A stretch of 53,744 nt of DNA, the filler included, from Sluysia triapertura (lineage: Eukaryota): NCBI GenBank assembly GCA_046118255.1. It is 4 parts of 4 records of this genome, joined end to end, with 100 filler letters (N's around TTAATTAATTAA, not from the genome) between each part and the next. Parts side by side here need not be neighbours in the genome. Positions count along the whole stretch, not along the records: positions 40,531 to 53,744 come from JBJNIA010052665.1; 3 more parts are not named here. One strand, given 5' to 3'. Under the pieces are notes generated by a model. The model was given only the letters and a program-made list of their open reading frames with translations. It did no database searches and had not been told where the DNA came from. Shown piece after piece: positions 700-50,870 of the stretch (positions within the stretch are counted from its first letter, which is position 1; each line of letters starts with the position of its first letter). Position numbers and translations under genes: made by a program.

Positions 700-1800
700 A
701 AGTAATTTGGTTAGCCACCACAGCGACAATAACGATTACGATTGATTTAGCAGCGAACCACAAATTATGAATTACCAAAATAATAATCACCACAAATTAC
801 GAAATACCACGTCACTAGTCAATTTTAGTTGTGAGTCGTATTTTATGTATGAACATTGTGTGTCATCTAATTAATTTTATGATTATTGATTTATACATTT
901 GTGTACTTTGTCAATTTAACATTCATCATTTAAGTTTGTACAAATCATTGACTTTTATAATATTCGTAATTTACTGATTTATAATTTTGTTTTTATTTTG
1001 TAATTTATAATTTTTGTTTTTTAACCCGATTAATTTTTAGATTATTATTATTTAATTCTTTTGGATTATTATAAACTAACGTAAGAATTTATATTAATTA
1101 TAAAATTTAATATCTTTAAAAAACTTTGTTTTAATAAATTAAATAAAACATTTGCTTAAATCTAGCCAAGGCCAGTTAAATCAACTATATATAGTTGAAA
1201 GTTTCAATAAACATCACACAATTTTTAAGCACAATTTTTTAAAAATTTGAACCAGATTTTGTTAATTTTTTAACGAAGTGGTCAAAGAAATTCTAATCTG
1301 AATTCCTGCTAAATTTGCTTACTAAATTTTGGTCTAATAATACGTTAGTTTATTATATTAAGTTACGGATATACAACATATATCCCGGTAAAATCAACTA
1401 AAAATCACTTTTTTAATTATTTCTAAAAAGATTTTATAATATATCTTTCGTAAAATCATCATTAAAATATTATCAATTTAGGAATTAAATTGATTAATAT
1501 CTCGTAATTTATTTATTTTATTACATTTATAACCTGTTTAATTTACCTGTTTAATCTACAAATTCAACGGCTAGCCCTAACTGGTAAGCCTAATACGTTG
1601 GTGGACTCACGTTAAAATCCTACTTTATTCTAAGAATCATCACAGAGAATAAACTAGTTTAATTAAAAAATACATTAAGTAGTTAAATTTTAGTTAATTT
1701 CATGTCAAAGAATTTGAGTGTGATTTTCAATAATTAATCATCCCTAATTCGTTTAATTAGAATTGAATGATTTTGAAAACAATTAAAAATCCTACGAGGA
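700..1800 (-). other. Structured non-coding element, long copy A (unnamed family)
   Basis: Reverse complement of 1563-1612 (ACGTGAGTCCACCAACGTATTAGGCTTACCAGTTAGGGCTAGCCGTTGA) matches 49704-49753 and 47898-47928. Perfect inverted pair at 1071-1083/1341-1353. ATTTAACTGGCCTTGGC motif (about 1165-1181, minus) shared with about 48687-48703. Confidence 0.75.
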
Positions 1801-16304: not shown

Positions 16305-16479
16305 TTAATACGTTGAATGCCATGGGGGTCACTGGTGACCTCGGAGAATTAAATGCGTCACGAATGATTACAAAACTTAACTGTTCTGTTTAAATAATAT
16401 TTCATCAAAATATACTGAGAAATTCATTTTAACCAGGTAGGCAAGCCATGTAAAATTAGTGTAGCATACAACGTGTTAA
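16305..16479. mobile_element. piggyBac-type MITE
   Basis: TTAA|TACGTTGAATGCCA...TAGCATACAACGTG|TTAA: imperfect TIRs bounded by TTAA, with internal palindrome GGTCACTGGTGACC typical of piggyBac ends. Confidence 0.75.
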
Positions 16480-17304
16480 AAACATTAACACAAACAATGA
16501 TTTTTAAAAATATAACTTTGAAAAATTGTTGTACCTCTAGGAAATTTAATGTACTGATGTCTAAACACAATAACAATGACTAAATATGAAGTTTTGCAAT
16601 GTATTTATTACAAAACTCACAAATGTTTGAAGATCAGTTTTATATAAATATATAATTTAATTTCATTATATATTCGTTTACATTGACTTTTTGTCAATTA
16701 TCGCTATTCTTTTGAATAAATCTTTTGATTTATTTTTTGTATCTTAGTTTTATTGTTAGTTTTCTATTTCTCTTTGTATTTGAATATATTATGGAAAGCT
16801 GAATTTGCTACCTTCTTTGTTACTTCAGGATATATAAGTTAATAAATAAAATTAAAAACATTATTCTGTAAAATTATAATCAAAATTTCTAGTAAATACA
16901 TTTATCATTTTTTATTAAACTTCATTGAGATCTAACAAAATTTGCTCATCATTAGTGTGTATCATTGGATCAATTTGCTAAACGACAAGAATAAGTGATT
17001 TAATTGATATCAACCTCAAATTATTATTTCAACATCATAATTTTGCGAATAATATACAATAATATAGTAGAAATTTTTTACGAATGTAAACAATATAATT
17101 CTGATCGGATTATATAAGCAAACTAAGAAATAAGAATGTTTGTTTTAAGTAAATATGAATTATTATAATGTACTGTTCTTTATTTTCATTTATCTGTATT
17201 ATTATGGAATATTAATTGTAATTTACTGTTCAAAATCACATTTTCTCAACGCGTAACAATTTAATCAATGACGAGTTAGACTTATGATAATAATCTAAAT
17301 GAAA

Positions 17305-17446
17305 TACACCTATCCCTTGTTTTAAACGGTTCAAAAAAAATTTAAAATTAAATATTGAAAATTTATTCATTTTGATTATATAAGCAGTTCCTTTTAATAC
17401 TTAATTTTAAAATTTTTTGAACCGTGTAAGACGAAGGTTAGGTGTA
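17305..17446. mobile_element. TA-flanked MITE (Tc1/mariner/pogo-type) with about 50-bp TIRs
   Basis: TACACCTATCCCTTGTTTTAAACGGTTCAAAAAAAATTTAAAATTAAATATT pairs imperfectly with AATACTTAATTTTAAAATTTTTTGAACCGTGTAAGACGAAGGTTAGGTGTA. Confidence 0.75.
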
Positions 17447-17844
17447 ATGCACTTTACTTTAATTAACAACTTATATAAATTTAATTTGTTACTTTATAAC
17501 ATAATTTTGGCACCTAAGTATTGATAAACACAAGTAAAAAGTAAAATAACGAACAATTACTAATTTCGAAAATCATTAACAATTCAATGACTTAAAATTT
17601 AAAATCGTCTATGCACACACAATTGTAAACAAATAATTGAAACGGTATAAAAATAGATTCAATTAATTCATCATTTCATTTTATGACATATTTTTTCAAA
17701 TGTATCAAAACATCATAAACAATTTCTATTTAAAAGTTTAACAATATTAACATTAGAAACACAAATACAGATATTAAATTTAATAATTTTAAAACTGTTT
17801 TCTAAGCTATATTTTAAGAACAATACACTTTTTAAACATAAATA

Positions 17845-18201
17845 TTAACTTTGTATTTTAGCACTTCGATAAGGTATAGGACTGCACATTAAATAAGGCA
17901 TATGATGCTTAGAACTAGCTCGTCTTCTGGCTTGAATTGACGAATTATCATTTGTAGCTCCCGATTTAGTTGCATTAATTGATAATTCTTTTGGTGTTTT
18001 AATAGAATTTGTTTTCGATTCAGTTCCAGATAAAACGTTATCATCGTTGTGATTGGTTGTTGTCGTAGTTACAAGACCACCAACTCGATTAAGTTGCAAT
18101 TTCTTACGCCCAGAATCCGTACTTAGAACTGGTGACACACGTGGTGATCGAACTATTGGAGCATCTTGTTGTCGAGGTGATGAACTTCGACGAATTCCCA
18201 T
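17845..18201 (-). CDS. Probable terminal coding exon of a host gene (mirror copy of 24162-24518)
   Basis: Identical translation to 24162-24518; locally higher GC; Ser/Thr/Arg-rich. Confidence 0.55.
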   Translation of the reverse strand: MGIRRSSSPRQQDAPIVRSPRVSPVLSTDSGRKKLQLNRVGGLVTTTTTNHNDDNVLSGTESKTNSIKTPKELSINATKSGATNDNSSIQARRRASSKHHMPYLMCSPIPYRSAKIQS

Positions 18202-21200
18202 CTAACATTTAAATCATTATTATAATTATTATAACAATTATCATTATAATAATAATAATTATTATTCGTCTAATGTAAAAACATCTATTTTTAATTACCT
18301 CATCTAAATAATTATAGGCACGCATGAAAAATAACATTCTTATCAAAATTGTTTTGAATAAATAAGGTAGTTTCGAATTTGTGAAAGTTTTTAGACGAAA
18401 ATATAGCTTATAATTCAAAGAATAAATATATTAAATTAAATTAAATAGTTAATGTACTAATGTAATAAATATGTTCCCTGCTTTTGATACAATATATTAC
18501 TTTATGATTTTCAAAGAATGTCTCTCATGTAATACAATAAAATGGAATGAATCATATTTATGTCTAAAAACAATGTTTTATTAAAAAAAAGTTGAAATGT
18601 AAAATAAAATAAAGATCTATTTCTAATTCCAATTTCTTTATTGGATTTATTTTATTTCTTGAAGTTGATTTCTTAAACTTAAATGATTCTTCAAGTGCTT
18701 ATCGTTCAGATTGTTGTATAGTGGCTTTGCTTTCATTCTTAAATGTATTTCATGAATATTTGTCATTTATAGTTTAAATTTTGTTGTGATTCCTGTTTTA
18801 CTTTTGAACTTATTAATCATGTATGTTGTTAAACTGTGATTCCTTAGGTTACGAATCAACTATTCTTTGAGGATGTAGGATTTTAAAAGCCCTATCCTAA
18901 GAAAGTGCAAAATAAGCTGGTTTTTAAAGTCAATGGTGTGTAATATGGAATGTATCGTTGAATTTAATTATGTTTTGTGAAGAAGGAAGTCTATTTTTTG
19001 GTGGGAGAAACTATAAAGAATGAATTTGGTAGATGTTGACTTAATAATTTGTGCGTTATGGTCTGGTCCAAAAATGAACACGTAGGAAAATATTAATTAC
19101 TTTTTCTAAAAGTGCAAATATAAATACAAAAGTATACAAAATATTAGAAAATTTATTACTAAAGATGCAAAGAAAATAATTGTGCATTCATTACCGATAC
19201 ATTGTGTAGCACACAATTCCAACAATTAGACTAGTTACCAATAAAAGCATGAATATAATTCAAAATAATAATATTAATTTATAAATAGTTATGTTAAAAC
19301 CCCATTTATACATTTATGAAAATATAAATAAAAAATGCTTAAGAAAGTCATTATACTTTATAATATTAAAATATCCACAAACATTTACTTTGTGACTCAA
19401 AAAAGAAATATTTTCAAAAAAATACTAAGAAACACCTTTGAAAATTAGCAAACAAACATGAAGGAAAGCCATAATTTATCATAATCAGCAACTAGAAATC
19501 ACAGTGGATTAAACACAGAGGCCAATACAACGATGAAAATTCGCTAAAAAATGAATACTACAGACACAAATACTAACTAGCAAGGCGGATATAGTTAAAA
19601 TTATAGTACATTGAAAATACATTTCTAAAAACATTAATATATATATATATAATACACTAATCAATTTAAGCTTTTTGAAATTTGTGTAAAAAATTAAAAA
19701 CATATTTTACGGAATTAAAATAGAGAAAATATTAAGCATTCTTAGATAACGCAAGATTTCGTCACAATAATGAAATCTTACGTCGTTCATTACCAGAATA
19801 GGATTATTGCTAAACTTCCTTTTGAGTGTATTAAGCCAGTACTATTGTTTGGTGTTTAAAGTTGTGAATTAGCTGTTCCTATTCTTATTCCATGAGGTAA
19901 AATGTAGAAAATTTCAAAAATATAATTAACCATTAATTAATAATTATTGATTAATAAAAGTACATTTTTGAAATTTATTATTACTTTTTGTTTACCTCTT
20001 ACATTTTAAGTTTTGTTGGCTGTTTAAAATAGAAAAGAACAGAAGAAACTGCTACAAATATGCAACCAGTTACCAGAAAATGTCGAATGTCGAAGATCAT
20101 AAAATATTAAAATGCATAGTTCACTCTGGTTCAGAAATATTATGACGAATGACGTATTCTAATAGCTTTTAAGTACTTATTTCGTAGCGGTACATAAATT
20201 TATGTATTATTATTATTCTTCTTCTTGTATTTGTCCTGAAACGACTTTATAAGTACCCCACATAATATTTGACAAAATCAACGAATGATAGTTTAATTGT
20301 AAATAATCCGATAACCATATATAATTTTGCTTTCTCATAAAAATTGTTAATAAATATCTTATCTAATCGATGATTAAGTATAATTATATTAATAGTTACA
20401 GCTTTATTATTTGTCAACAGCAGAATAATTTGTTTCAACAATATTTTTCAAAATTGTTTGCATAATTAACTGCAAAGTATTTAATATCATGTTCGCCTAT
20501 AATAGGATGCTGCAACTGCTTAAAGAGCTCCTGTAGAAGTTTATTTAATTATTAATTTGTTCTATGAATTCTTTTACGTAATAATTTCCTTCAAGGTTAT
20601 GAAATGTTACTCAAATATGTATGAACGTTACACCTCTTAAAATATCGTATTTTGGACTTCTATCGTACTTTACACAAATAAACGAATGTATTCTTTTTAT
20701 TCAATGTCTAGTAGAATTGAACAAACTCTTTAAATGGTCACTAGTTTTTACAATTCAAAGGTTTGCTTTTCTTTTTACTATTTAAATCAATTATACACAT
20801 TTTGACCTTGCTAATTTTTTACAATAATGGCTTATACACATTAACAACAAATTAACTAACACAAAAATTATAACATAAATGACGATGAGTTAATGTATTC
20901 GTCGAAACTAATATTTTATTCAAGTGATTCTGATCTATTAATTTACCTCTATTTTAGCTTTACTTAAGCAAGGAGAACTTATAAGAATTAAACTTACGAT
21001 GTTTACAACTAAAATAAATCGATGTTGCATAGTTCTTCTCTTCAGAGATTTGCTGAATCTGAGTCAGAACTACTAAATCTCCAAATAGTATCAAAATCAA
21101 CCAAATTTAACACTAAACATACCATAACCGGTCTATACTATGATACTGTATTGTTTTCTGACATTTTTTATTTAAATATATATATATTTAAATAAAAAAT

Positions 21201-24161
21201 GTCAGAAAACAATACAGTATCATAGTATAGACCGGTTATGGTATGTTTAGTGTTAAATTTGGTTGATTTTGATACTATTTGGAGATTTAGTAGTTCTGAC
21301 TCAGATTCAGCAAATCTCTGAAGAGAAGAACTATGCAACATCGATTTATTTTAGTTGTAAACATCGTAAGTTTAATTCTTATAAGTTCTCCTTGCTTAAG
21401 TAAAGCTAAAATAGAGGTAAATTAATAGATCAGAATCACTTGAATAAAATATTAGTTTCGACGAATACATTAACTCATCGTCATTTATGTTATAATTTTT
21501 GTGTTAGTTAATTTGTTGTTAATGTGTATAAGCCATTATTGTAAAAAATTAGCAAGGTCAAAATGTGTATAATTGATTTAAATAGTAAAAAGAAAAGCAA
21601 ACCTTTGAATTGTAAAAACTAGTGACCATTTAAAGAGTTTGTTCAATTCTACTAGACATTGAATAAAAAGAATACATTCGTTTATTTGTGTAAAGTACGA
21701 TAGAAGTCCAAAATACGATATTTTAAGAGGTGTAACGTTCATACATATTTGAGTAACATTTCATAACCTTGAAGGAAATTATTACGTAAAAGAATTCATA
21801 GAACAAATTAATAATTAAATAAACTTCTACAGGAGCTCTTTAAGCAGTTGCAGCATCCTATTATAGGCGAACATGATATTAAATACTTTGCAGTTAATTA
21901 TGCAAACAATTTTGAAAAATATTGTTGAAACAAATTATTCTGCTGTTGACAAATAATAAAGCTGTAACTATTAATATAATTATACTTAATCATCGATTAG
22001 ATAAGATATTTATTAACAATTTTTATGAGAAAGCAAAATTATATATGGTTATCGGATTATTTACAATTAAACTATCATTCGTTGATTTTGTCAAATATTA
22101 TGTGGGGTACTTATAAAGTCGTTTCAGGACAAATACAAGAAGAAGAATAATAATAATACATAAATTTATGTACCGCTACGAAATAAGTACTTAAAAGCTA
22201 TTAGAATACGTCATTCGTCATAATATTTCTGAACCAGAGTGAACTATGCATTTTAATATTTTATGATCTTCGACATTCGACATTTTCTGGTAACTGGTTG
22301 CATATTTGTAGCAGTTTCTTCTGTTCTTTTCTATTTTAAACAGCCAACAAAACTTAAAATGTAAGAGGTAAACAAAAAGTAATAATAAATTTCAAAAATG
22401 TACTTTTATTAATCAATAATTATTAATTAATGGTTAATTATATTTTTGAAATTTTCTACATTTTACCTCATGGAATAAGAATAGGAACAGCTAATTCACA
22501 ACTTTAAACACCAAACAATAGTACTGGCTTAATACACTCAAAAGGAAGTTTAGCAATAATCCTATTCTGGTAATGAACGACGTAAGATTTCATTATTGTG
22601 ACGAAATCTTGCGTTATCTAAGAATGCTTAATATTTTCTCTATTTTAATTCCGTAAAATATGTTTTTAATTTTTTACACAAATTTCAAAAAGCTTAAATT
22701 GATTAGTGTATTATATATATATATATTAATGTTTTTAGAAATGTATTTTCAATGTACTATAATTTTAACTATATCCGCCTTGCTAGTTAGTATTTGTGTC
22801 TGTAGTATTCATTTTTTAGCGAATTTTCATCGTTGTATTGGCCTCTGTGTTTAATCCACTGTGATTTCTAGTTGCTGATTATGATAAATTATGGCTTTCC
22901 TTCATGTTTGTTTGCTAATTTTCAAAGGTGTTTCTTAGTATTTTTTTGAAAATATTTCTTTTTTGAGTCACAAAGTAAATGTTTGTGGATATTTTAATAT
23001 TATAAAGTATAATGACTTTCTTAAGCATTTTTTATTTATATTTTCATAAATGTATAAATGGGGTTTTAACATAACTATTTATAAATTAATATTATTATTT
23101 TGAATTATATTCATGCTTTTATTGGTAACTAGTCTAATTGTTGGAATTGTGTGCTACACAATGTATCGGTAATGAATGCACAATTATTTTCTTTGCATCT
23201 TTAGTAATAAATTTTCTAATATTTTGTATACTTTTGTATTTATATTTGCACTTTTAGAAAAAGTAATTAATATTTTCCTACGTGTTCATTTTTGGACCAG
23301 ACCATAACGCACAAATTATTAAGTCAACATCTACCAAATTCATTCTTTATAGTTTCTCCCACCAAAAAATAGACTTCCTTCTTCACAAAACATAATTAAA
23401 TTCAACGATACATTCCATATTACACACCATTGACTTTAAAAACCAGCTTATTTTGCACTTTCTTAGGATAGGGCTTTTAAAATCCTACATCCTCAAAGAA
23501 TAGTTGATTCGTAACCTAAGGAATCACAGTTTAACAACATACATGATTAATAAGTTCAAAAGTAAAACAGGAATCACAACAAAATTTAAACTATAAATGA
23601 CAAATATTCATGAAATACATTTAAGAATGAAAGCAAAGCCACTATACAACAATCTGAACGATAAGCACTTGAAGAATCATTTAAGTTTAAGAAATCAACT
23701 TCAAGAAATAAAATAAATCCAATAAAGAAATTGGAATTAGAAATAGATCTTTATTTTATTTTACATTTCAACTTTTTTTTAATAAAACATTGTTTTTAGA
23801 CATAAATATGATTCATTCCATTTTATTGTATTACATGAGAGACATTCTTTGAAAATCATAAAGTAATATATTGTATCAAAAGCAGGGAACATATTTATTA
23901 CATTAGTACATTAACTATTTAATTTAATTTAATATATTTATTCTTTGAATTATAAGCTATATTTTCGTCTAAAAACTTTCACAAATTCGAAACTACCTTA
24001 TTTATTCAAAACAATTTTGATAAGAATGTTATTTTTCATGCGTGCCTATAATTATTTAGATGAGGTAATTAAAAATAGATGTTTTTACATTAGACGAATA
24101 ATAATTATTATTATTATAATGATAATTGTTATAATAATTATAATAATGATTTAAATGTTAG

Positions 24162-24518
24162 ATGGGAATTCGTCGAAGTTCATCACCTCGACAACAAGAT
24201 GCTCCAATAGTTCGATCACCACGTGTGTCACCAGTTCTAAGTACGGATTCTGGGCGTAAGAAATTGCAACTTAATCGAGTTGGTGGTCTTGTAACTACGA
24301 CAACAACCAATCACAACGATGATAACGTTTTATCTGGAACTGAATCGAAAACAAATTCTATTAAAACACCAAAAGAATTATCAATTAATGCAACTAAATC
24401 GGGAGCTACAAATGATAATTCGTCAATTCAAGCCAGAAGACGAGCTAGTTCTAAGCATCATATGCCTTATTTAATGTGCAGTCCTATACCTTATCGAAGT
24501 GCTAAAATACAAAGTTAA
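24162..24518 (+). CDS. Probable terminal coding exon of a host gene; Ser/Thr/Arg-rich, probably disordered C-terminal tail
   Basis: GC clearly above background; 118 codons without a stop. The ATG is immediately preceded by TTAG (acceptor-like), so it is likely an exon rather than a whole gene. Ends with TAA followed by an AT-rich UTR-like region. Confidence 0.55.
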   Translation: MGIRRSSSPRQQDAPIVRSPRVSPVLSTDSGRKKLQLNRVGGLVTTTTTNHNDDNVLSGTESKTNSIKTPKELSINATKSGATNDNSSIQARRRASSKHHMPYLMCSPIPYRSAKIQS

Positions 24519-24916
24519 TATTTATGTTTAAAAAGTGTATTGTTCTTAAAATATAGCTTAGAAAACAGTTTTAAAATTATTAAATTTAATATCTGTATTT
24601 GTGTTTCTAATGTTAATATTGTTAAACTTTTAAATAGAAATTGTTTATGATGTTTTGATACATTTGAAAAAATATGTCATAAAATGAAATGATGAATTAA
24701 TTGAATCTATTTTTATACCGTTTCAATTATTTGTTTACAATTGTGTGTGCATAGACGATTTTAAATTTTAAGTCATTGAATTGTTAATGATTTTCGAAAT
24801 TAGTAATTGTTCGTTATTTTACTTTTTACTTGTGTTTATCAATACTTAGGTGCCAAAATTATGTTATAAAGTAACAAATTAAATTTATATAAGTTGTTAA
24901 TTAAAGTAAAGTGCAT

Positions 24917-25058
24917 TACACCTAACCTTCGTCTTACACGGTTCAAAAAATTTTAAAATTAAGTATTAAAAGGAACTGCTTATATAATCAAAATGAATAA
25001 ATTTTCAATATTTAATTTTAAATTTTTTTTGAACCGTTTAAAACAAGGGATAGGTGTA
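24917..25058. mobile_element. TA-flanked MITE (mirror of 17305-17446)
   Basis: Palindrome mirror copy. Confidence 0.75.
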
Positions 25059-25883
25059 TTTCATTTAGATTATTATCATAAGTCTAACTCGTCATTGATT
25101 AAATTGTTACGCGTTGAGAAAATGTGATTTTGAACAGTAAATTACAATTAATATTCCATAATAATACAGATAAATGAAAATAAAGAACAGTACATTATAA
25201 TAATTCATATTTACTTAAAACAAACATTCTTATTTCTTAGTTTGCTTATATAATCCGATCAGAATTATATTGTTTACATTCGTAAAAAATTTCTACTATA
25301 TTATTGTATATTATTCGCAAAATTATGATGTTGAAATAATAATTTGAGGTTGATATCAATTAAATCACTTATTCTTGTCGTTTAGCAAATTGATCCAATG
25401 ATACACACTAATGATGAGCAAATTTTGTTAGATCTCAATGAAGTTTAATAAAAAATGATAAATGTATTTACTAGAAATTTTGATTATAATTTTACAGAAT
25501 AATGTTTTTAATTTTATTTATTAACTTATATATCCTGAAGTAACAAAGAAGGTAGCAAATTCAGCTTTCCATAATATATTCAAATACAAAGAGAAATAGA
25601 AAACTAACAATAAAACTAAGATACAAAAAATAAATCAAAAGATTTATTCAAAAGAATAGCGATAATTGACAAAAAGTCAATGTAAACGAATATATAATGA
25701 AATTAAATTATATATTTATATAAAACTGATCTTCAAACATTTGTGAGTTTTGTAATAAATACATTGCAAAACTTCATATTTAGTCATTGTTATTGTGTTT
25801 AGACATCAGTACATTAAATTTCCTAGAGGTACAACAATTTTTCAAAGTTATATTTTTAAAAATCATTGTTTGTGTTAATGTTT

Positions 25884-26058
25884 TTAACACGTTGTATGCT
25901 ACACTAATTTTACATGGCTTGCCTACCTGGTTAAAATGAATTTCTCAGTATATTTTGATGAAATATTATTTAAACAGAACAGTTAAGTTTTGTAATCATT
26001 CGTGACGCATTTAATTCTCCGAGGTCACCAGTGACCCCCATGGCATTCAACGTATTAA
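25884..26058. mobile_element. piggyBac-type MITE (mirror of 16305-16479)
   Basis: Palindrome mirror copy. Confidence 0.75.
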
Positions 26059-27952
26059 AATTACTTAACTTTATTATTTTTATAGTCGTTCCATAAGTTA
26101 TTTTTGTTTAGGTCCAGAAGAAATCGAATTTATGTCTTTTGATAAAGATAATAAAGGGTTATTTTTATTATTATCACTATTATTATATAATTATAATTAT
26201 TACATTAGACTTGCTTTATAAATATACTTTCGGATTAAGTATTTTTCAAAGAAAAATTGAATGAAAAATTTGTTAAACTTTTGCTTTTTTCTTTTAGAAT
26301 TCTAAAATCACTCTTGTCACTACAATAAACAGGATGTCTTTCATTAAAATTGCTATTTTCATTTAATTTGGCTCTGTTTTTATATTTCTTTTGTTTTATG
26401 AAGTTTTACTTATTCAGTGATCATCTTGAATCATCACATCACATTCTCTTTATGTATGGTGTGACAGTGTTTTTCAAAAAAACTATCCTTAGTAAATTTT
26501 TTGTGTATTATTGTAACTCTAACTCTTAAATGTCGTTGTAATACTAGAACATACCATTCAAACGGCCTCAAAGTCATTAGTATTCTCTCACTACATGCTG
26601 TTGTAGAATTATCACTATCGAATAGCAACACATTCTTTTCTTTCGAGACTGTCAAATGTATAAATTGACAAGTCGAAGGCTATCGAACGAAAAAATCAAT
26701 CATTTAAAGGCTAAAGATTTTTTTATAATGAAGCATTAAATGAAGATGATCATATCTTTCTTCATTTGAATGTTTAAATTGCCTTATTTAATACGGCTTA
26801 TTTAAAAATAAATCTGTTATCAAAGATCTGATCTAATAAGAATAATAAATATTTATTTCTATCACCACTAATACGCCATTTGTAAAATCATAATAAAATG
26901 TAATTAATTTAAAAAATTATCATAATAAAACATAATGAATTTTAAAATAAAAGAAAATTTTTTAATTTAAAAAAAAATTAATTTAGATTTAAATACTTTT
27001 AATACGAAATATTATTTTGTAAAAGAGAATTATTCAGAATATTTATGGCGTATTATTAAAAAATATTGTATTCCGGGCGTAACATCTACATCAAATAATA
27101 TTGCAATTATTATCACTTATTGGGTGTGAACCCACAATTATGTATAAAAGGCAAAAATAATAATGAGAACAACACAATAAACACGAAGAAAGTTAATTGT
27201 TTGATTATTTGAGATTCCTATAATACTTATTATTCGCAGCAACACATTTGCAGCGAGTTACTTACAACTAGTACGAAAGTTGTCTTCATAGTCGATTTAT
27301 AGGCGATTAGATAATTTTATGTTCGTGGAATTTAGATAATTGTATTCCTCGATTTAGAATTTCATAACTAAAACAATTTATAATTTGGGGTATAATTTAC
27401 GAATAAATCGTAAGTTATTAATTATTTAAGTCTTTCCCTCTAATATAAAGGTTGAAATCCAGGTAAATTTGCAATGTTTTAAAGCCTATAACATTTGGAT
27501 CAAATTATAATTAAATTTAATTCAATTAAGGACCAGCGCCTTAATTTTAATATTCATTTGTTATTAAATATATTTATAAGTATAAAACGTTGTAATTTAT
27601 TTTATTGTGCTTATAATACACTTTCGTTTATTTTCGTTTTGTTAAATTAGAATATTAAAATAAGAATTAAACTAGTTTGATACCAGTTAACGAAATACTT
27701 TAATATATTTATTGAATATTAATGAATTAATAGTTGTAACATTTAGTGAATTAATAAGAAAAGAATCGTAATTAATTCAGTGATAAGTGTCAATTTGAAC
27801 TTTAGTAGGACTATAAAGAAAAGGCCTTATTAAACTAAGAAAAGTAGTGGATTAATAATTGATTTTACACGCAAATCTTTACGGGTGATTCATAGACCCG
27901 CAATAATCTTTCGAAGAAATCCTGTGACCTTGTCTTACATTAGGATATAAAT

Positions 27953-28023
27953 CAGTGGTGTCAAACCTTTTTGCTTTACGGGCCGCATGATTTGCCTCCG
28001 CGGGCCGCCACTTTGACACCACT
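27953..28023. mobile_element. hAT micro-MITE (mirror of 14340-14410)
   Basis: CAGTGGTGTCAAA...TTTGACACCACT(G). Confidence 0.75.
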
Positions 28024-32746: not shown

Positions 32747-34240
32747 TTATTTTCTTGGTCTTCCAGGTCTTATCTTAAGAGTATTTGTTTCTTTATTCAA
32801 CTTTATAAATGGATTATCATTGAAATCTAATATGTAATCGGGTTGTTTCGTATCAGTATCATTAATATTTTTCTTAACATCATTATCATCATTAACGACC
32901 ATTAAGTTCTTCATAAATGAGTGAAAGAAGTAATTCTTATATACATTATTTTTAAAGACATCGTTAGGGGTAGAATAACTAAGAGGTTTATAAACAATAG
33001 CAGCCTTTAATATATCATCATGAATTCCAAGAGGATATCCATAATCAATAAAAAATTCATCAGGTACTTCCTTCTCACGAAAACATGATTTAAAACTAAT
33101 TTAATTCAACTTAATCAAATTAATAATCTCATTGACCATTGTCGTAACAAGCAATTCCATTACAACATTTATCGAATCGTGATTAATATCTTAACATTCA
33201 TTAAAGTCTGTTAATTCATTTCTGCCTGTGCGATTTTCTTTAGTATTTTTCTTGCTTTAATCTTATATGGGCTATCTCTCTACTTATGATCGTCTTGAAC
33301 GTTTAAATCCGAATTATAACTTTCCTAAATTATTTTCAATGTTTTTGTATCACTTAAATTGAAAATAAATGTCTCAACTGTCTCGTTGGAAATTGTCTCT
33401 GTGTTATTAAAATTATTCTCATCATTAACAATGATTCCATTTATTTTGGTACAATTGCTTCTCAATGATTGTTGAATCGGTATTTCCGCCTGTTGCTGAT
33501 CCGTATTGTTGCTGTTATCACTTATTTCTACTTTTTTGCATTATTTGTTTCACGTATACTCTCCTCTTTTTTCATTTCTATATCATTCAACCCATCATTC
33601 CTCTTTTTGTCTGCATATCTTCTTTTTTATCGCTATATTCATCGTCTAATTTTATTCTTGAAAACTTCTCGATAAATTTATCTTCATTAAAACTTCTTTT
33701 ATTGTATTCTGTCGCCATTCTATACATTTCTAGTTCAAAATCGTGTTCCTACATTCTCCATCTTAGCTATTATAATAATTTTGTATTTTTTTACAATTAT
33801 AATTTATTTGGCATTTATTCTTATTGTTATCTTTATTAAACCTTACCTTTTTATCTGGATTCGGCTGTTTCTGGTAATCTTGCATGTTAGCGAGATTGTG
33901 GTTGAAAGTATTAGTATTTTAATTTCGGTGATAAAATTTTTAAAAATTCTTAATTATCTTTACTGTTACTTATGTAACTTATTTTATCCCGTTCTTCGAC
34001 TCGATATCTTTAGATACCTCATTATTTCTTAACAATATCTTTAAAATGTAAATCATCACATGTAAATTTACATAAGCTCTTAACTCTGAGCGTAAATCAT
34101 TTTTTAATTTGTCAATTAAAATATTTTCTTTCTTATCATCAGGGATTTTAGCTTTATCATGTTTATTTAAACCCTTTTTGCTTGCATCTTACTTTCCTGA
34201 ATCAGTTTTAGCAAAGGTTTATGGTCTCTAATAGTTCATC
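32747..34240 (-). pseudogene. Decayed Gag-like or LTR-retrotransposon-derived ORF ending in an AT-hook
   Basis: Minus-strand fragments KAKIPDDKKENILIDKLKNDLRSELRAY and TCDDLHFKDIVKK, a charged middle region, and C-terminus IRPGRPRK*. The + strand hydrophobic ORFs 33465-34032 are its antisense shadow. Family assignment is by resemblance only. Confidence 0.4.
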
Positions 34241-39100: not shown

Positions 39101-39189
39101 ATGCACCGCAACGTAAAAATTACCATAAATAAATTTATATATAAATTCATAGTAGCGCTTACAACAAAAGCTTATTGTTTACAAATATT

Positions 39190-39640
39190 AATAGTGTAAA
39201 TAAAGATAATGTAATCTTAATGCTTAACAAAGTAAATGTATGTAAAGCCATATTTGTATTTTGTAATGTGAATAAAGACAATGTAATCTTGAGGTTTAGC
39301 AAAGTAAACAAACATAAAGCCATATTTATATGTAATAATCCAAATAAAGATAGAGTAATCTTAATGTTTAATAAAGCAAATATAGATAGTCATATTTCAA
39401 TTCAATAATATAAATAAAAATAAAGTAATCTCGATGTTTAATAAAGTAAAGGTAGATAAAGTCACATGTCCATTTAGTAGTGCTAGTAAAGTAATCTTAA
39501 TGTCTAACAAAATTGACATGTCTCTATCTAGTAACGTAACAATCTTAATATCTAACAATGGAAACGTCTATAAATTCATGTTTCTATTTAGAAATCTAAA
39601 TAAATCTGAAGCAATCCTGATGTATAATAATGTAAACCTA
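39190..39640. repeat. Degenerate 72-bp tandem repeat made of 36-bp half-units
   Basis: AATAAAGA(T/C)A..GTAATCTT..TG(C/T)TTA.CAAAGTAAA recurs at about 39199, 39271, 39343 and 39413, with decayed units beyond. Confidence 0.8.
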
Positions 39641-40343
39641 AGTGAACTAAACTATCCAACCAGAGACGCATCAACAACGACTACCTCACGAAGAAAAATT
39701 CCTCCAGGCCATTATACATCACATACAAAATAATACGTCAATTCATATTATAGATAATAAAACTATTATCTATCATCCAACATCTAACTGATACACCACT
39801 GTCTCTCTACTTTAATGTGGACTCTTTTTAATGTGAACAAATGTTTACCTAGCCTTATACTCGATTATTTTGTGCAGGAAAGTAAGAATTTACAATTGTT
39901 ATTCTTTATGTTATATATTTTATGTTTCTTTATATATTTTTATTCTTTATGTTATATATTTTAGTTTTATAAATTCCTAATGTCTTATTCTTTCATTATC
40001 CTAGTGTTTATTAATTTAAATTGTAATGTGGTTTTAAAACAGTTTAAGTCTATCCTAAAATTAAATAAAAATTGGCATCTAGTTATTTTTATAATTTAAA
40101 GACAATTTATCTTAATCATATAATAGTTTGTTATTAGAAATTAAATAAACTTTATTTCAATTTGTTTTGTAATTATTTTCGAATTTCAATCCCATACTCA
40201 TTATCACTCTTATATAATCATTCGAATAAAACCGTTTACAACAATTATTGTTATTTTTCTTTAAACCAAATTTCTTGAAAATTCAAAACATTTACTACAA
40301 TAATAAAGATTTATGTTGCAATAAATTTTCTGCACCGTTTCAT

Positions 40344-41974: not shown

Positions 41975-43829
41975 CCAAGATTAAAACTTACAATTATTAA
42001 TTTGAATTACTTAATTAAAAAAAATTTTTCAACAACCTTTTTTAAATGGTTGATTATTTAGTTTATACAAATTTTTAGTAGATTTTACAAACAAATTCTT
42101 GTTAAACTTATATAAATTCCAACTAACGTAACGAAAAATCTTGTATTCTATTCGAAAAAATCATCTAGAAAGAATCCTCTAATGTGCTTACCAAGAAATT
42201 AAAATTGATTGAATGATCAAAAATCAAGAATTAATTTTGCGTGACTTGTGTTAAAGTTGGTTATTTGAATATTTTTTCAAGGTTAAAAATAGTGCGTTAT
42301 TTTAATCAAGAATTGAAATAATGTTTTTAATTATTAAACTACTCAAAAATAATTGAGTATTTTAAATAATTAAAAATCATTTGATATTTTGAAATAAAAA
42401 GTAATTTGATTTTTTAGAAATAGAATACAAAATTATTTTTAGGTTATTGATTTATATAATATAAATAGTACTAATATGTAGTAGTCTATAAACAGCATGT
42501 AAATAAATATATTGATTGATTGACATTACAGAGTTAAGGATCAACTAGTATGTGTCAGTGAAAACGAGGTTTTTTTGAGGTCAAGAAAGATGCTATGGTT
42601 CGTTTAGAATTCCCTATTATAGCGAGGTTAGTTTTTTATTTAAATTTTATGAATGATCCATTTTATAAGGATCTTATATTTAAATGATTTTTAGTTATTA
42701 TAAATAACAATGTATTATTTTTTCTTGTATATTATAAATTTTTGAAATAATATAAATTATTTAATTAACTGTTTTAATTAAATTTAAATTAATGAAATTA
42801 AATTAAATTTTTTAATGAAATTTTCAATGTTCATTCACAAGAATTTAATAGTAATTATATTTATTTTCAAAAAAATATATACAAATATATGATCGTATTA
42901 ATATTTATTCAGAAAAACGTATACAATTTTAATAATTATAAATAACTTCAATTACATTATGAATATAATTTCTTTAATAGGATTATTTTTATCAAATTAT
43001 TTTTGACAGATAATTGTTTAACGTTAAAATCTATTAATATTTAAATAGACGATCTATTAAAACATTACTAAACAATTACAATTACGGTTTAAGTGTATTT
43101 TAATTATTTTCTAAAATTATCACATAAAATTAACTAACGAAGATTTTACAATTCAATTTAAATATCTAATTTTTGGAATTCTCAAATTGTTTGTTACGCG
43201 ATCACTCAATAAATAATTGTACAAAGAATTCAATATAATTAATTATAGAACTGAGGTTTATAAATTTCGTCCAAAATTTGTTCTATTCAAAATAACCAAA
43301 AATTTAGTGCAGTAAACAAATTTAAATGTAAATTTTTTTTATTTGATCACATTTATTTTATAGTCAATTTAAACTTTACGTGATGAAATTTCAATGTACT
43401 TATAATTTTAAATGACTATACCTCAATAATAATTTATAACAAGATTAGTTTAAAATAGGTATTTTTTAATAATATAATTATAATAATAAATAATGATTTT
43501 AATAAATAATAATAATGATAATAACAATAATAATGACTATTTTTACATCTTTATCAAAAAATATAAATTACATTTAATATTTTAAAAATAACATTTACTT
43601 CACAATTTAATCTTTATATATTTACATAATTTATACTATACTTTATACTTTTACATAAACTTTATAATTTATATTATTGTTATCATTTTATTATTATCAC
43701 TGTTGTACATTCATAATTTGTATTAATGAATAATTTTTAATTTTTATATTAATAATTGTATTAATTTTTATATTAATTTGTCATTAATGTACTTGTGTTT
43801 ATTAAAATTCTTAATTCACTTACTAAAGA

Positions 43830-44095
43830 TTTTTTGAAGGAATACAGTTTTTAGTAAGGTCGAAAAATCCTACGTAAACTATTCCTACTGAATTTGATTT
43901 AGTAAGGATACCGTTTTTAATTGAACGGTAGTAAAATCTTATGTAAACTACAAAATATTGTAGTTAGTTACTATCAAGACAAGTTTAAGATTTTACCCCA
44001 TTATTTTAAAAAATAAAACTCCACTATTATTCTTGCTGATACCTATGAACTAGCCATTAAGTGTATAAGTCTAGGATCGTAGAGACTCACGTATT
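43830..44095 (-). other. Structured non-coding element, copy B-minus
   Basis: Reverse complement of 44042-44092 is ACGTGAGTCTCTACGATCCTAGACTTATACACTTAATGGCTAGTTCATAGG, followed by GATTTTAC + hairpin TACCGTT/AACGGTA and TAGTTTACGTAGGATTTTTC modules. Confidence 0.6.
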
Positions 44096-44189
44096 ACTTT
44101 TCATATTACTATTAACTCAATATTTCGCTACATTATTATTAATATAAACCTAGATTATTGTGAGAAAAAAGTTTGTTTCTACTTTACTG

Positions 44190-44320
44190 CACGAGAATAA
44201 AAAATATAAGTGTGTGAGTTCATCAACATATCTAGTCTTACCACTTAGGGCTAGTCGTTGGATTTAAAAGCAAGATAAAACTTTAATGCTTATGGAGGTT
44301 CAATGTCCTACATAAACTAA
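44190..44320 (+). other. Structured non-coding element, copy B-plus (core only)
   Basis: GAGAATAAAA...GTGAGTTCATCAACATATCTAGTCTTACCACTTAGGGCTAGTCGTTGGA (44214-44262). Confidence 0.7.
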
Positions 44321-46857
44321 TAAATGACTAATAAAATTCTTTATTGCTTACTGTTTTTATTATCGGTTTATAGAATCGAAATTTTCTTAGCTAATTCTTA
44401 CTTTAATTTATTTTGGTTAAAAAATGAAATTGAATCTAGAGGTTTTATTTAAATTAACAAATTTTATTGATTCTTACTTAAACAGAACCATACAATCTTT
44501 TATGATTTAATTACTTTTGTTAAAAAAATATAATTAAGGAACACAAATAGTTAGAGAAAGTTTTATTGTACAAAATAAAATTATTATAATTACAAATAGT
44601 AAAATAAAAATGAAATTTTTTTTGAATTTCTTATTATACCAGAAATTCCTTGCAATTGAAGTTAAAAATGAAGATTTAATTCTTCCTATCAAATTAAACG
44701 ATAGGGTAAAACAACATGCAATATTTTAAGTGGAATTTAATCTGTAAACTTTTAAATGTTTACTAAAAACTTATTAAAATAAAACTAACGATTATTCAAT
44801 ATAAAGCAACAGAAAATTTAAATTGTTCACAGATGTAAGTATACGCAAACTGTTTGTAATTATACACTGACAAATTGTCACAAATCAAATTGTTCAAAAA
44901 ATCTGTAAGAATGTAATTGTGAAGTGAAAATTGTGAATTGTTAAACATTTGTGTTTGTATTTTTATAGTTTAATAATCTATAAAACAAAATATTACATTT
45001 TCAAAAATTTTCAAATATTATTACTCTAAAATTTTAAAATATTATTATTACTTTATTTTAGAATAAGATTTTAAAAAAATTATTATTATGATTTACAAAA
45101 ATATTACCTTACTAGCATATTCAAAATCCAGTTATTTACAATAAAAATCAATAATTATGTGTAATCACTATATAAAATCAATAATTAGTGTTAGTGTTAA
45201 CTGACAATATATTAATAAACAAATCTTATTACAGTGTAATAATTGAAAGTTTACGTTTGATAGAAGTATTTTAGGATGTAATAAGAGTGATAAGGCGATG
45301 TTAATATTATAAATGATTTATCTTAAGTTCTTTTGAATATTTGCAGTTAAATGTGATTAGTTTACCTATGAGTTCTAAAGATGTGATTGCTAAAAGTTTG
45401 TAAAATATGTAAGGTGTAGCGTGAAAAGTTATGGAAATTTTGAAATGTTAAGTGATTTATATTGAATGTTTATGAACATTTCATTGGTTCTAATTACTTT
45501 CTGTTAATTCTTGATCAGTACACTCCACTATATTTTTATGTTAAACATTCGAAACCAAATAAATTTAAAATTATTATACAATGAAAAATTTTATCTGTAC
45601 ATAGAGAACCGCAAGGATTGACAATAGATACACTATTATGTAAAACAGAAATTACAAAATACAATTTGTACAAAGATGTATTATTTAATGCATTCTTTTT
45701 GTTGAGTTACAGTTACGAATTGTGATAAAAGTTTAACTATTTATTTATACTTTATTTTATCTTTTATTTGATTTAGGAAATACAACGGAAATTTAATATT
45801 GTTACTTTGGAAACAAATAATAACGCCTTTGTGGATTTCTGACCAAAATATTTCTCAAATAAATTACATTTAATCAATGTTTCATAAACTTTATCTGAAT
45901 GTTTATCATAATCGGTTTAGATATTTGTTGTTTTATTTCAAATTAAATCAAAATTTTAATATACAAATACTGGAAATGAATTTTCAATTATTAAATTAAT
46001 ACATTTTTTGAAAATCAGAATTTTGAAATTATTATTTAAACTACATTAGTACTATTTTAATAATAATGTCGATATTGTGACCTCCATAATATATAAAATA
46101 TAAGATTACAAAAAATGAAGAAGTTAATTAAATGGAGTTAATAATCTATCATTTAATACAATGTTTTTTTAAAACTAAATAGTATTGTTTATTTCATATT
46201 TTTCATTAAAACTATTTTTCAAATAAAATAGGTATTTTTTTCATATCTTAAGCTTCATTGGTTTATAATTTTTGTTTATAAAAATAAATATGTATAGTAC
46301 ATTCACTGAAAAACTAAGAAACTGTTTATTTTTGTAAAGAGTTATGTAAATTATCTAGTTTAGCAAAATATGTGTTGTTTTACTGTATTTTATTTACAAA
46401 CAATTTGTAATAATACAAATAAATTACATAAAATGATTTACACGAGAAGAAAGTAAAATAAGAAATAAGCAATAAATATGAAGATCAGTACTGTTTATGG
46501 ACTTGACAAAGCATTTCTGTAAGTTAAAGTGACAGAAAAATAATATTCTCTTTTTCGGAACCAAAATGTTTGCATATTACTTGATGTTCTGGAAAATGGC
46601 AAACAATATACATTGAACAATAACAAACACTATTGGTATCGATGAGATATATGAAAATAAAACCTAAAGGGCCAAAATTAATATGAAAGAATTGATAGAA
46701 GAATTAAACTACCTGGTAATTGTTCGTTCTTCAAACATTTTTAAATGTGTTCTGAATTAATAGTTATTTTCAAGAAATATTTCGAATATATTTTGTAACA
46801 TTCGTGGAATGAAAAGAATTTTATTTTGAAAATGACTACAAATGCTTAAACAGTAAG

Positions 46858-46976
46858 ATTACATATTTACGTAAGATGAGATATTTATTATTGAATTAAT
46901 AGTAGGCTCACTTTTTAATGAATATTTAATGCTGTAATTCAATAATAAATAATCTCGTCATACGTAAATATGTAAT
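46858..46976. repeat. About 41-bp-arm inverted repeat (MITE-like foldback)
   Basis: ATTACATATTTACGTAAGATGAGATATTTATTATTGAATTA pairs with TAATTCAATAATAAATAATCTCGTCATACGTAAATATGTAAT with few mismatches. Confidence 0.75.
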
Positions 46977-47844
46977 GTTAGTATTCGATTTTTTTATATT
47001 TTATAAAATATATTAAAAATTTTATTGCCATATTAAAATATAACAAACATTGATTATTTTATTATTCGTTGTGATTAATTGACTTTGATTATTATTTTAC
47101 CAGAACTAATAATAATAAAAATATATCAAAGAACAACTTGATGACTCGGTAAACTAAAACAAAAAATATTCAGAATAATAAATTTCAGTACTATAAAGAA
47201 ACATTTATTAAAAGCGTTAACGATTGATATCAACCTAACAATAAATTCCATTTCCAGAAAACCTACTTAATTTATATTTCCTGTTTCTTTACTACATTTG
47301 TTATCAATAACTATTTTTCTTTTGTGCTAAATATTTTTCTAAAATTTAAGTTATTCGGTGAAATTTTGGTCAAAAAAATGTTAATTTATTTTGTTATTTT
47401 GTTTGATATTCTAATTTCTTAATAAAACCTATCTTTTGACAAAATTTTGTATATGTTTAGTTTTTATTAAGTTATTTTACTTTTAAACCACAAAAAGTGA
47501 GAGTTTCATTGCATTTTATTTGATATATCATCGTTCATCAATATTACATATTATTTTGCGAAACTTTTGCCATGTTCGATTACGAGGTAATCATAGAAGT
47601 CAAGACAAATCTAAGTAAAATATTATTTTATTTAATTATATTTGTTAATTTATTATTTGTAGGTTCAGAAACCTTAATTTAATAAATATATAAATTTGCA
47701 GTATTTAACTACCATTAAAAATAAACAAAATTGGTTACAATTAAATTAACACTTAAAATGCCCGTTATTTTTTGGAAACTTTATGTATACCACCGACTAC
47801 TTTGCAAAAATTGAAGACGCATGCATTCTTATACATAAAATTGT

Positions 47845-49120
47845 GTGATTTTAAAAGTAAATAAGATCCTTAGAGAATAAAATAAGATTTTTAAGTGCTA
47901 GGCTTACCGGTTAGGGCTAGCCGTTGGATTTATAGAGAAAATGTTTTTTAATTGAAGACGGGAATATCTTCCTAAAGTGTCTGCGAATTTATTGAGATAC
48001 TCAGTGAGTCTATTTAAATATTTTACTTTCTGTCAAATAACAATTAAATACTTAAATGCTTATCAATCAAATTTAGCTGAGTTCTGGAAGTATTTTAATA
48101 GAATTTATAATCAAATGGGGAGTTAATGCAAATATTTTACTAACTGAAAAATATTGGTTAAATTTTACATTATTAAAATAGTTTACGTAAATCCTGTGAA
48201 AAGGATTTGTAATGAATGATTTTACCGTATCAGAATTAAATTCTGATAAGTGAAAACTTTGCTTTAGTAGAGATTTTATATTTAAAACTATGAAAATTAA
48301 TTATTAATAAAAAGGAACTATCAAATAGTTTATATTATATACTTAGTATGATAAAAAAGAAATATAAAAATTGATAAATATATTGCGGAGAGTTAATCTT
48401 ATAAAAATAATAATTTAATAATTGATTTTATGGGAAATTATTATAAGTTTCGAAATTAATTACAAAAATTTTATTGTAAGTCGATTTTACGGGGAATCTT
48501 ATCGTATCCTAAACTTAATATAATAAACTAACGTAATATTCTGTGTAAAAGAAAAATCTGGTTGTAATATCTTCTTAATCTTACTCTTGTACGCACTTCT
48601 TCCGAATGAAATATTTATAAAAACTGGTTAACGTAGTATAAAATTGTGTGAAAAATTGTAAGTTTTATGCGTATTTATGTACTTAATTTAACTGGCCTTG
48701 GCCAAATTAAAACAAAACTATTTATTTAATTGTTAAAACAAAAATATTTCGATTAATAATTTTAAATTTGATTAATTTCAAAAAATATTAAAGTTTACAT
48801 TTAATTAATAAAATTACTTACTTTAGTTTAATTTAGATCCAAAATTAATAAAAGAATAATAATACAATTAATTTAAAAATCCAAAAATAATTCAGAAAAA
48901 TAAGCAATAAAAGAAATTAATCAATCAAAGTTCAATTAAAAATCAATCAATAATACAGAATGTAATAATTATAATAAACAAATGATAGTTCATGATTGTA
49001 TAAAATGAAATAACTCCTAAACAACAAATCATGTATTTATCAAAATTTCACATGATTTTAATAAATAAACGTTTTGCTCTACCGCTGGTCTACAATGATC
49101 GTGTTAATGCGTGGCCAGCA
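47845..49120 (+). other. Structured non-coding element, long copy C
   Basis: Core at 47898-47928; hairpins AAATCCT-GTGAAA-AGGATTT and ATCAGAAT-TAA-ATTCTGAT; long-range pair 48524-48536/48818-48830; collinear with copy D about 1.8 kb downstream. Confidence 0.75.
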
Positions 49121-49349
49121 CTTTAAGTGTTAACATATAAGTAAGATTTCTATATTTCAAAACAGCTTATACACATTAGAATATTATTTTAAAATCTTAG
49201 AAAATTTGTCTTTATACACTTTTGTTAAGTTGTCATCACAAAATACTCTAAAATTATGTATGTCTTTGCAAACATTTAAAATCACTTAAAATGTTTATTT
49301 TCCACAAAAATAAAATTTCTAAAAAATTCGCTTCTAAAAATAGAATTGA

Positions 49350-49425
49350 AACTTCTAGAATTTTCTAGGAAATTTCATCGATTCCCATTCGCCAATGACT
49401 ATTATATAAACTAGCATCAGTTTAG
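49350..49425 (+). promoter_or_regulatory. Promoter-like block: HSE-like array, CCAAT, TATA, Inr-like TCAGT
   Basis: TTCTAGAATTTTCTAGGAA (49353-49371), CCAAT (49392), TATATAAA (49403) and TCAGT (49417). TATA-Inr spacing is shorter than canonical. Confidence 0.5.
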
Positions 49426-49644
49426 TGAGAATCACCATTTTAAAATTTCAAGCTTTGTCAACCATTTTAAAAATTATTCGTCTCTATTTCGCTTTGAAAT
49501 TTTTATCAATTTCAGTCGCCATTTTACTTGTAGATGATTATTCGAGTTTTATTCAATACTGTCTATTGATTCGGAAGCAGTTTTTCCATGTTCTCCATAA
49601 GTTATTTTTATTAAGACATTACTAATAATAAAATATTAGTATCG

Positions 49645-50870
49645 TAACATTCGTGGGGATTTTAAAAGTAAGACTTATCCTTATAGAATAAAATATAATT
49701 TTAACGTGAGTCCACCAATATACTAGGCTTACCAGTTAGGGCTAGCTGTTGGAATTTTGCAATTAAAGAGATTAACAATATAACTCAATGCTTGCTTAAA
49801 TGCTTAGTGAATTTCAGTTAAATTGTGGAGGTATTTTAAAGAATTCAAGTATTTATTAAAAATAATTATTTAAGGAATAGTTTTCGTAAATCCTATGAAA
49901 AGGATTTGTAATTAATGATTTTTCGTCATCAGAATTAAATTCTAATAAAGCTTTTGATGGACGGGCGATTTTATCATTTTGAAACTATGTAAATTATTTA
50001 TTATACAAATAACAAGACTTTTTTTCCTCGAATGTATATTAATAAAAATTATACAAGAATTCAATAATTATAATTAAGAAATAAAATTGTTGTTTAAATT
50101 AAGTACCAGAGTTAATATTTTGTTTTACAATGGATTTTAATTTGATTCTTCGTAGGAACCGTTAAAAGGTTCCGTATATCTTTAAAATAGATTTTTAGTA
50201 GATTTTACATTGGATACTTATAAGTATCAAATCCTACAAAAATAAACTAACGTGTTATAAATTATTCTATTGTTAAATAAAAAGAAAGTTCAATCAGTGG
50301 GATGATCTTTCAGAAGAAATGTCTCGAAAATATAATTCTATTATGATATCAAGTGGAGAGAAGTTTTCCTTATATATTCAAAATCAACGAAGCGCGGTTG
50401 TAATTTTTTGAAATTTTATTCTGTATCGTGAAATTTTTTCACGCGTATTTATGTATATTTTGTAGTGGCCATGAAAAAATTTAAAACAAAACTATTTAAA
50501 ATGAAATAATTTTGAAAAATAAAATAATTTAGAACTATTTAAATGATTTTTCTAAATTAATAAGCACTTACGTTAGTTTAATTCTTTAAAAAGAATTATT
50601 TTCCACAAATATTATTAAAATATAGTAATTTGTTCAAACATCGAAAAAATTAACTATTGTTATAAATAAATATGATAATGATGTATATAAATCGATAATC
50701 AGTTAAAACTAAAACGTGTATTACAATGTCCAATAACATAAATACAAATATACAGATTAATATACAGATTACATCATCACAAATATATGAAATTTTATCG
50801 CATTAGATTTTATTCTGATGTGCTTTATCAATATTTTAAAAGTGATTTTATCACCGACTTAAGCCACCCC
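49645..50870 (+). other. Structured non-coding element, long copy D
   Basis: Core at 49704-49753; hairpins AAATCCT-ATGAAA-AGGATTT, GGAACC/GGTTCC and GATACTT/AAGTATC; long-range pair 50243-50254/50569-50580. Confidence 0.75.

Follow-up and report, generated by a model that had tools for sequence, protein, structure and literature searches.

The 53,744-nucleotide stretch of Sluysia triapertura DNA analysed here (the window), which is made up of four AT-rich stretches (GC 22-25%) from a 619-Mb eukaryotic assembly, contains a short motif that recurs beside hairpins of differing sequence, and raises the question of what kind of element carries such an array and what might read it. A preliminary description had placed the array at 48170-48520, in the order motif then hairpin, and had compared it to iterated binding or processing sites such as small-RNA precursor arrays or iteron/hr-type origins. 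All eight motif-plus-arm strings quoted there are found in the window: at 48179 and 48218 in element C, at 49878, 50144 and 50201 in element D, at 1395 and 1457 (minus strand) in element A, and at 43938 (minus strand) in element B. That placement is true of the C examples only, those of A, B and D falling elsewhere, and one A example, given with five T where the DNA has four (as GATTTTTAC it has 0 matches), is otherwise present. As described, the stems of A and D differ in their letters at two homologous positions and pair intact in both.

The elements that carry the array

Self-comparison of the window revealed four linked elements (~900-1650, 43900-44280, 47842-49002 and 49650-50700), with the following features:

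47842..49002, minus strand: element C, a solo LTR (1161 bp), delimited by its TG-type left end, a flanking 4-mer and genome matches
47838..47841 (left) and 49003-49006 (right): target-site duplication of element C
48693..48701, minus strand: conserved CAAGGYCA block, ~20 nt upstream of the TATA box, presumably an NR5A/Ftz-F1-like site
48672..48681, minus strand: TATA-like box of element C, where ATG depletion starts
48525..48534, minus strand: conserved GUUAGUUU block at the start of the module array, splice-donor-like, with a putative role
48483..48509, minus strand: module 1 of element C, hairpin plus GUAAAAU, with one stem mismatch
48424..48451, minus strand: module 2 of element C, decayed here, paired in siblings
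48378..48404, minus strand: module 3 position of element C, decayed here
48218..48248, minus strand: module 4 of element C, 9-bp stem, 3-nt loop and motif
48180..48208, minus strand: module 5 of element C, 7-bp stem, 6-nt loop and motif variant GUAAACU
48084..48091, minus strand: ACCUCCA-type block of element C, one change compared to the family
47903..47927, minus strand: 5' part of the long U5 hairpin of element C, sequence-conserved
49651..50700, minus strand: element D, an LTR from a diverged family, with its U3 end undefined
50201-50228, 50144-50173, 49917-49943 and 49879-49907, minus strand: modules of element D
49997-50002: AATAAA of element D
49706-49713: PAS-like block of element D
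900..1654, plus strand: element A, LTR end at 1644, then the 10-nt spacer, then a primer site that has decayed; left end approximate
1367-1396 and 1427-1458, plus strand: modules of element A, which lacks the part of the LTR that holds modules 3-5
43909..43939, plus strand: module of element B, a more diverged LTR (end ~44130)
~44159-44280, minus strand: second LTR end fragment, tail-to-tail with the element B LTR

Elements A-D are almost certainly LTRs of an envelope-carrying Ty3/gypsy element, and C and D are transcribed from the minus strand of the window, because an LTR-end junction, a primer site and gag, env and pol follow the LTR in other copies. Element C has at least 42 matches in the host genome at 75-88% identity (best 40 of 2477 candidates scored), and on the plus strand of the window its family has a sharp boundary at TG, the other end being a variable AT-rich tract. 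Ends of the TG...CA type and a 4-bp target duplication are present, the sense 5' end of element C itself being TA, not TG; an identical 4-mer lies on both of its flanks, and 4-bp duplications, judged by eye, accompany siblings L011, L014, L016 and L017. Candidate duplications in LTRs collected later include chance matches in AT-rich flanks, so that we claim no duplication rate.

Two siblings of C run on into a common flank that consists of a 10-nt spacer, the primer site and gag. An 18-nt probe for the junction of LTR end and primer site found 161 exact matches (control: 0), and the primer site is an 18-nt match to the host genome's own tRNA-Met(CAT). The gag that follows matches PF03732 (Retrotrans_gag; E=1.8e-5). 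Longer copies carry, in order, gag with one CCHC knuckle (zf-CCHC), a linker, a fusion glycoprotein, reverse transcriptase, RNase H, and then integrase, all internal genes being broken. The glycoprotein between gag and pol is of the Monjiviricetes type (PF24664; E=1.4e-57 in L054; also in L051), and pol, whose relatives are gypsy pol proteins, matches RT_RNaseH strongly and RVT_1 and rve weakly in short broken pieces. In L051 and L054, pieces of pol lie 5-8 kb past the primer site, giving an internal region of ~8-10 kb, an estimate from two broken copies. For a BCL2-like domain before env, no Pfam, Atlas or PDB match was found, and the model of this region is all-helical with a pLDDT of 41. 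DNA-transposon, Helitron and SINE identities were dropped once the primer site and gag turned up, and the earlier idea of an iteron/hr-type origin fails since the repeats sit within dispersed retroelement LTRs.

The gene order of the element that owns LTRs A-D is gag-env-pol and Burro-like, an order known from planarian Burro/GYPSM1 (PMC6431247) and from errantiviruses whose hosts are flatworms, nematodes and bryozoans (PMC13524379). Like the element here, both of these combine Retrotrans_gag with a CCHC knuckle, a mononegavirus-type fusion glycoprotein and RT-RNase H-integrase, and both reach very high copy numbers. Unlike them, the element here has a single knuckle, and its internal region of ~8-10 kb (from the two broken copies) compares with up to 25 kb in Burro and falls short of the giant size of strict Burro. 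The host element class is known; the module is a real feature of its LTRs. No description of RNA structure in the LTRs of Burro or errantivirus elements was found in the available text of PMC6431247 and PMC13524379 (in the latter, 'stem-loop' has 0 occurrences).

Several other features of the window were recorded. An open frame at 32750-33100 (minus strand), 31% identical to the element's gag-env linker and like it ending in RPGRPRK, is by this resemblance a piece of a distant sister family. The entire second stretch (14340-28023) is a perfect, spacer-free 6.9-kb inverted repeat, probably an assembly artefact, and imperfect palindromes outside the LTRs at 46854-46980 (~127 bp) and 42320-42381 (~62 bp) are possibly remnants of small DNA transposons. 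Degenerate 36/72-nt repeats lie inside open frames at 39174-39733, for which Pfam gave no match above cut-off, and an open frame at 6540-7064 (plus strand) has a weak ankyrin-repeat match (E=0.017).

Form, enrichment and pairing of the module

The functional strand is most likely the one opposite to that of the preliminary description, so that the hairpin lies 5' and the motif, read as GUAAAAU, lies 3'. On this sense strand a module consists of a hairpin with a 5-10-bp stem and, 3-5 nt past it, the word G(U/A)AAA(A/C)U, a distance kept between stem base and word in 93 of 102 modules. Stems are 6-7 bp long in 74 of the 102, are usually closed by G-C and often begin with GAT or GAA, and loops are mostly of 3, 6 or 7 nt (6-7 nt in 68, 3 nt in 14 and 4 nt in 4). 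The G that starts the word is conserved at 82%. No conserved mirror copy of the word stands on the 5' side of the stem, and this one-sidedness sets the module apart from a DNA palindrome site. In some families (L031, L042, L063, L065 and L070) modules 4-5 are swapped for tandem copies of another stem, with a UUAAAAU word, and L070 has the word alone in five tandem copies. Module 3 is intact in L023, L032, L034 and L047.

Enrichment was scored with a strict module, in which the stem ends at most 6 nt upstream of the motif. In 29 LTRs, one per cluster (25.7 kb in all), 40 of 102 sense motifs have upstream of them a perfectly Watson-Crick-paired stem of 6 bp or more, compared to 0.83 ± 0.80 (maximum 3; n = 40) in dinucleotide shuffles, the comparison by which the preliminary description had proposed to judge its array. 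Stems on the wrong, downstream side of the motif numbered 8 of 102, and those on the opposite strand 4 of 30. Since the motif had been defined after a partial view of these 29 LTRs, a second test used LTRs that had been collected afterwards with another anchor, of which 15 of 30 reached far enough upstream. In this held-out set a stem precedes 10 of 34 motifs (shuffles: 0.22, maximum 1), against 0 of 5 in antisense and 1 of 11 in the flanks; one or more strict modules occur in 6 of the 15 LTRs. Background in non-LTR DNA of the window was nil on one strand (0 of 28) and 7 of 47 on the opposite one, at scattered single sites. Most copies are module-poor (at most 2 modules in 34 of 46 even under relaxed rules), as expected for decayed insertions, yet this limits power.

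Pairing was scored in two alignments, A1 with 24 of 34 anchored blocks, the mis-anchored, deleted and redundant ones having been excluded by eye, and A2 with 20 of 39; for covariation as for enrichment, every copy came from one genome. In the region of modules 1-2 (the alignment of 24), 81.7% of 404 cells were paired (30 with double changes), and in modules 4-5 (the alignment of 20), 87.8% of 196 cells (24 with double changes), with 0 of 500 shuffles as high in either case, where cells are copies, not events, and kinship of the LTRs inflates the shuffle control. Slid registers were paired at no more than 50%, against 82% for modules 1-2 and 88% for modules 4-5. The number of pairs with a double change was not significant in alignment A1 (63 of 500 shuffles), and a lower stem below module 1 was just 65% paired. 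RNAalifold, unaided, recovered the stems of modules 1 and 4.

Stems are almost purely Watson-Crick (90 of 118 perfect), and mismatches of the G-U and A-C kinds are about equal (7 vs. 8; 15 vs. 9), a ratio blurred by decay in dead copies, so that pairing alone cannot pick the RNA strand. In local folding the motif is half paired (probability unpaired 0.34-0.53); the local fold of element C lengthens the module 4 stem, and the antisense strand folds equally well. The window has 0 Rfam matches, the best hit in 47700-50700 having E=0.23. The histone mRNA stem-loop (SLBP site) was rejected as a candidate, because a 4-nt loop occurs in just 4 of the 102 modules and the 3' flank differs; the histone form itself, with a GG-based stem of 6 bp, a loop of 4 nt and an ACA-type 3' flank, was found in 2 of 4 host H4 genes. 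The loops of module 1 are not U-rich, as a pseudoknot of the loop with the motif would have them.

The modules occupy about five positions, all downstream of the TATA box and facing one way. Across 75 copies, aligned on the U5 hairpin (see below), strict modules form two clusters at -500 to -101 and are absent 550-1100 nt upstream (34-46 copies per bin), and past the primer site, internal sequence totalling 23.8 kb has 22 motifs and no module. Sense ATG is scarce in the 29 leaders (50, against 165 ± 9 in shuffles) and in the held-out copies (45, against 87 ± 8), as expected of a scanned leader. Sequence between the modules has diverged past BLAST recognition, and word, spacing and stem size persist at homologous positions.

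LTR anatomy and the primer tRNA

Comparison of 33 LTRs (at least 800 nt long, or window copies), which form 29 clusters when grouped at 75% across 400 nt, revealed one order of blocks common to diverged LTRs: CAAGGYCA, a TATA-like box, the GUUAGUUU block, modules 1-3, AATAAA, modules 4-5, ACCUCCA, a long hairpin, GRACUCAC and the LTR end. In the 29 LTRs AATAAA has 16 occurrences in the 50-nt bin 200-249 nt past the GUUAG block. On the U3/R/U5 borders that we infer, transcription would start ~25-30 nt downstream of the TATA-like box; modules 1-3, which precede AATAAA, would lie in R and thus also at the 3' end of the RNA, and modules 4-5, after AATAAA, would belong to U5.

The pattern of the long U5 hairpin has 2973 exact matches in the host genome (control: 0) and 0 in metagenomes, and among 20 distant sister-family regions, mostly on contigs that were too short, the primer site was found in one, which lacks the U5 hairpin. 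Element C has a deletion that removes the 3' end of this hairpin together with the PAS-like block. The hairpin covaries at one pair (G-C in 32, A-U in 12 and other in 3 of 47 copies), and its loop holds a donor-like GGUAAG word in 82% of copies and also a self-complementary hexamer that, by its sequence, could act as an RNA dimer start.

Two blocks are complementary to the primer tRNA: ACCUCCA to positions 40-48, just 3' of the anticodon loop of tRNA-Met, and GRACUCAC to positions 50-57, in the T-arm, where 38 of 38 scored copies are A-U/G-U compatible (31 + 7). The HIV-1 primer activation signal is likewise complementary to the primer-tRNA T-arm (PMC13191261), a likeness that concerns this flanking block, not the modules; here the primer is tRNA-Met, with its site 10 nt from the LTR end. 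In L021-L050, where the primer site begins 10 nt past the LTR end, the intervening nucleotides are complementary to a block ~15-35 nt inside U5, with which they likely form a U5-leader stem. An intron from the GUUAG block to the CCUCCAG block was also considered; the final G of the latter is kept in only 68%, so that tRNA pairing is favoured over a splice acceptor, and one exact junction probe, a single probe without positive control, found 0 spliced copies of family C.

Inverted copies of the GUUAG block stand in U3 of C (48817-48829), D (50570-50580) and A (1070-1082), and in 8 of 30 LTRs scored. Long-range pairing of U3 with R reaches 9 bp in 8 of 30 LTRs, compared to 11% between unrelated LTRs. 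By analogy with foamy virus, for which such masking in 3'-LTR transcripts is described (PMC3694450), the inverted copy could mask the GUUAG block only in 3'-LTR transcripts, or it could be a DNA site.

Of the six matches to a tRNA-Met probe, five (L071-L075) are DNA copies of the 3' half of the primer tRNA, each with the identical start point just after the anticodon loop, and four of them carry CCA followed directly by the complement of the LTR end. They are likely products of primer read-through up to a modified base near position 37, stops of this kind being listed in PMC13191261.

Candidate readers of the modules

The earlier idea of iterated binding sites is strengthened by the one-sided conserved word, the fixed spacing, the covarying stems and the roughly five positions per element; the analogues that had been named for it are not. 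Our tentative preference, by analogy with known systems, is that one RNA-binding protein of the host, acting in export or translation of the unspliced RNA, docks on the modules. The hairpin-plus-GUAAAAU modules would fold in the RNA leader downstream of the TATA-like box; a candidate host protein would dock on them repeatedly and, once bound, would help the long unspliced gag-env-pol RNA to exit the nucleus and be translated. Because stem and loop letters vary and spacing and word are constant, such a protein would be predicted to read the helix together with the single-stranded 3' word; a constant word set at a fixed distance from a helix of free sequence would suit a protein site on RNA. Action of the modules at the RNA level is likely, and, if they do act there, we lean slightly towards a host export or translation factor rather than Gag.

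By position and form the modules may work like a post-transcriptional control element (PCE) or a response element. The retroviral R-U5 PCE (SNV, MPMV, HFV, HTLV-1) consists of redundant stem-loops, which bring a host helicase to unspliced RNA for its translation (PMC2657110). Here too redundant stem-loops would lie in R-U5, within a long structured leader, but, unlike in the PCE, they are repeats of a single small unit whose 3' word is fixed, at about five positions, covarying across dozens of LTR families. It is by form and position that the modules resemble a PCE, whose further hallmarks are DHX9 binding and an orientation-dependent gain in translation. Rev/Rex response elements, CERV-dependent export of Cer1 (PMC10309623) and the Gag sites of MMTV (PMC8096270) also comprise multiple structured sites on full-length RNA; those systems require a protein partner, which here is putative. 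A separate regulatory gene or a spliced RNA is not in evidence for the element here, and its modules lie upstream of the primer site.

It is possible, though less likely, that the modules are RNA sites for the element's own protein, either the CCHC knuckle of Gag (in packaging, or bridging two RNA ends) or a Rev/Rex-like basic segment of the linker. Retroviral packaging signals lie mostly downstream of the primer site, where hardly any modules are found, which counts against this reading. The linker does contain a candidate segment, RPGRPRK; we take this to be a typical AT-hook, which usually binds DNA. On the other hand, one primer site and a similar Gag are common to dozens of diverged LTR families, all with the same word, a single CCHC knuckle is present, the word is purine-rich with a conserved starting G, as might suit MMTV-like Gag, which binds single-stranded purines (PMC8096270), and the gypsy-type Cer1 does encode an export protein (PMC10309623). 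The more specific proposal of a five-fold helix-plus-GUAAAAU aptamer read by the gag-env linker protein, a Rev/Rex-like switch that arose independently of vertebrate complex retroviruses, combined with two tRNA pairings as in HIV, appears doubtful.

We consider it improbable that the modules act at the DNA level, as a factor site beside a spaced inverted repeat or as a hairpin in minus-strand DNA, with a role as downstream enhancer or in reverse transcription. The near-pure Watson-Crick stems without G-U excess, their frequent GAT or GAA starts and the inversion of the neighbouring GUUAG block in U3 of 8 of 30 LTRs would fit such a role, but the modules all face one way and avoid U3, the usual enhancer site, and their stem letters are free to change with double substitutions, a freedom unneeded by a DNA protein that reads sequence. 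The preferred reading, docking of a host protein on the RNA, is also set against iterated cleavage or small-RNA processing, which is very unlikely: although the 3-5 nt between stem and word recalls enzymes that read a helix/single-strand junction, an R-U5 that cut itself would destroy the template of reverse transcription, and the small-RNA precursor array of the preliminary description is not borne out, the stems having only 5-10 bp, much less than miRNA precursors and other Drosha/Dicer substrates, and Rfam giving no match. Hardly any weight falls on an absence of function, with one ancestral unit duplicated and its inverted repeats maintained by template-switch mutation in reverse transcription, as tandem module or word expansions in L031, L042, L065 and L070 might suggest, given that word, spacing and stem size stay in place across 33 LTRs in 29 clusters.

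Descriptions of animal gypsy LTRs usually go no further than the ends, the TATA box and the poly(A) signal, as in the available text of PMC3601003, and no description of the GUAAAAU module was found in the literature searched, including the available text of PMC6431247, PMC13524379 and PMC3601003, subscription papers, Repbase reports, bioRxiv supplements and Grohme et al. 2018 being outside its scope. The dozens of diverged LTR families form a natural series that reveals which RNA features are kept, namely the repeated module and the tRNA-pairing blocks, and the module offers a short, testable bait for learning how full-length RNA is exported, translated or packaged in an invertebrate retroelement that carries an envelope gene.
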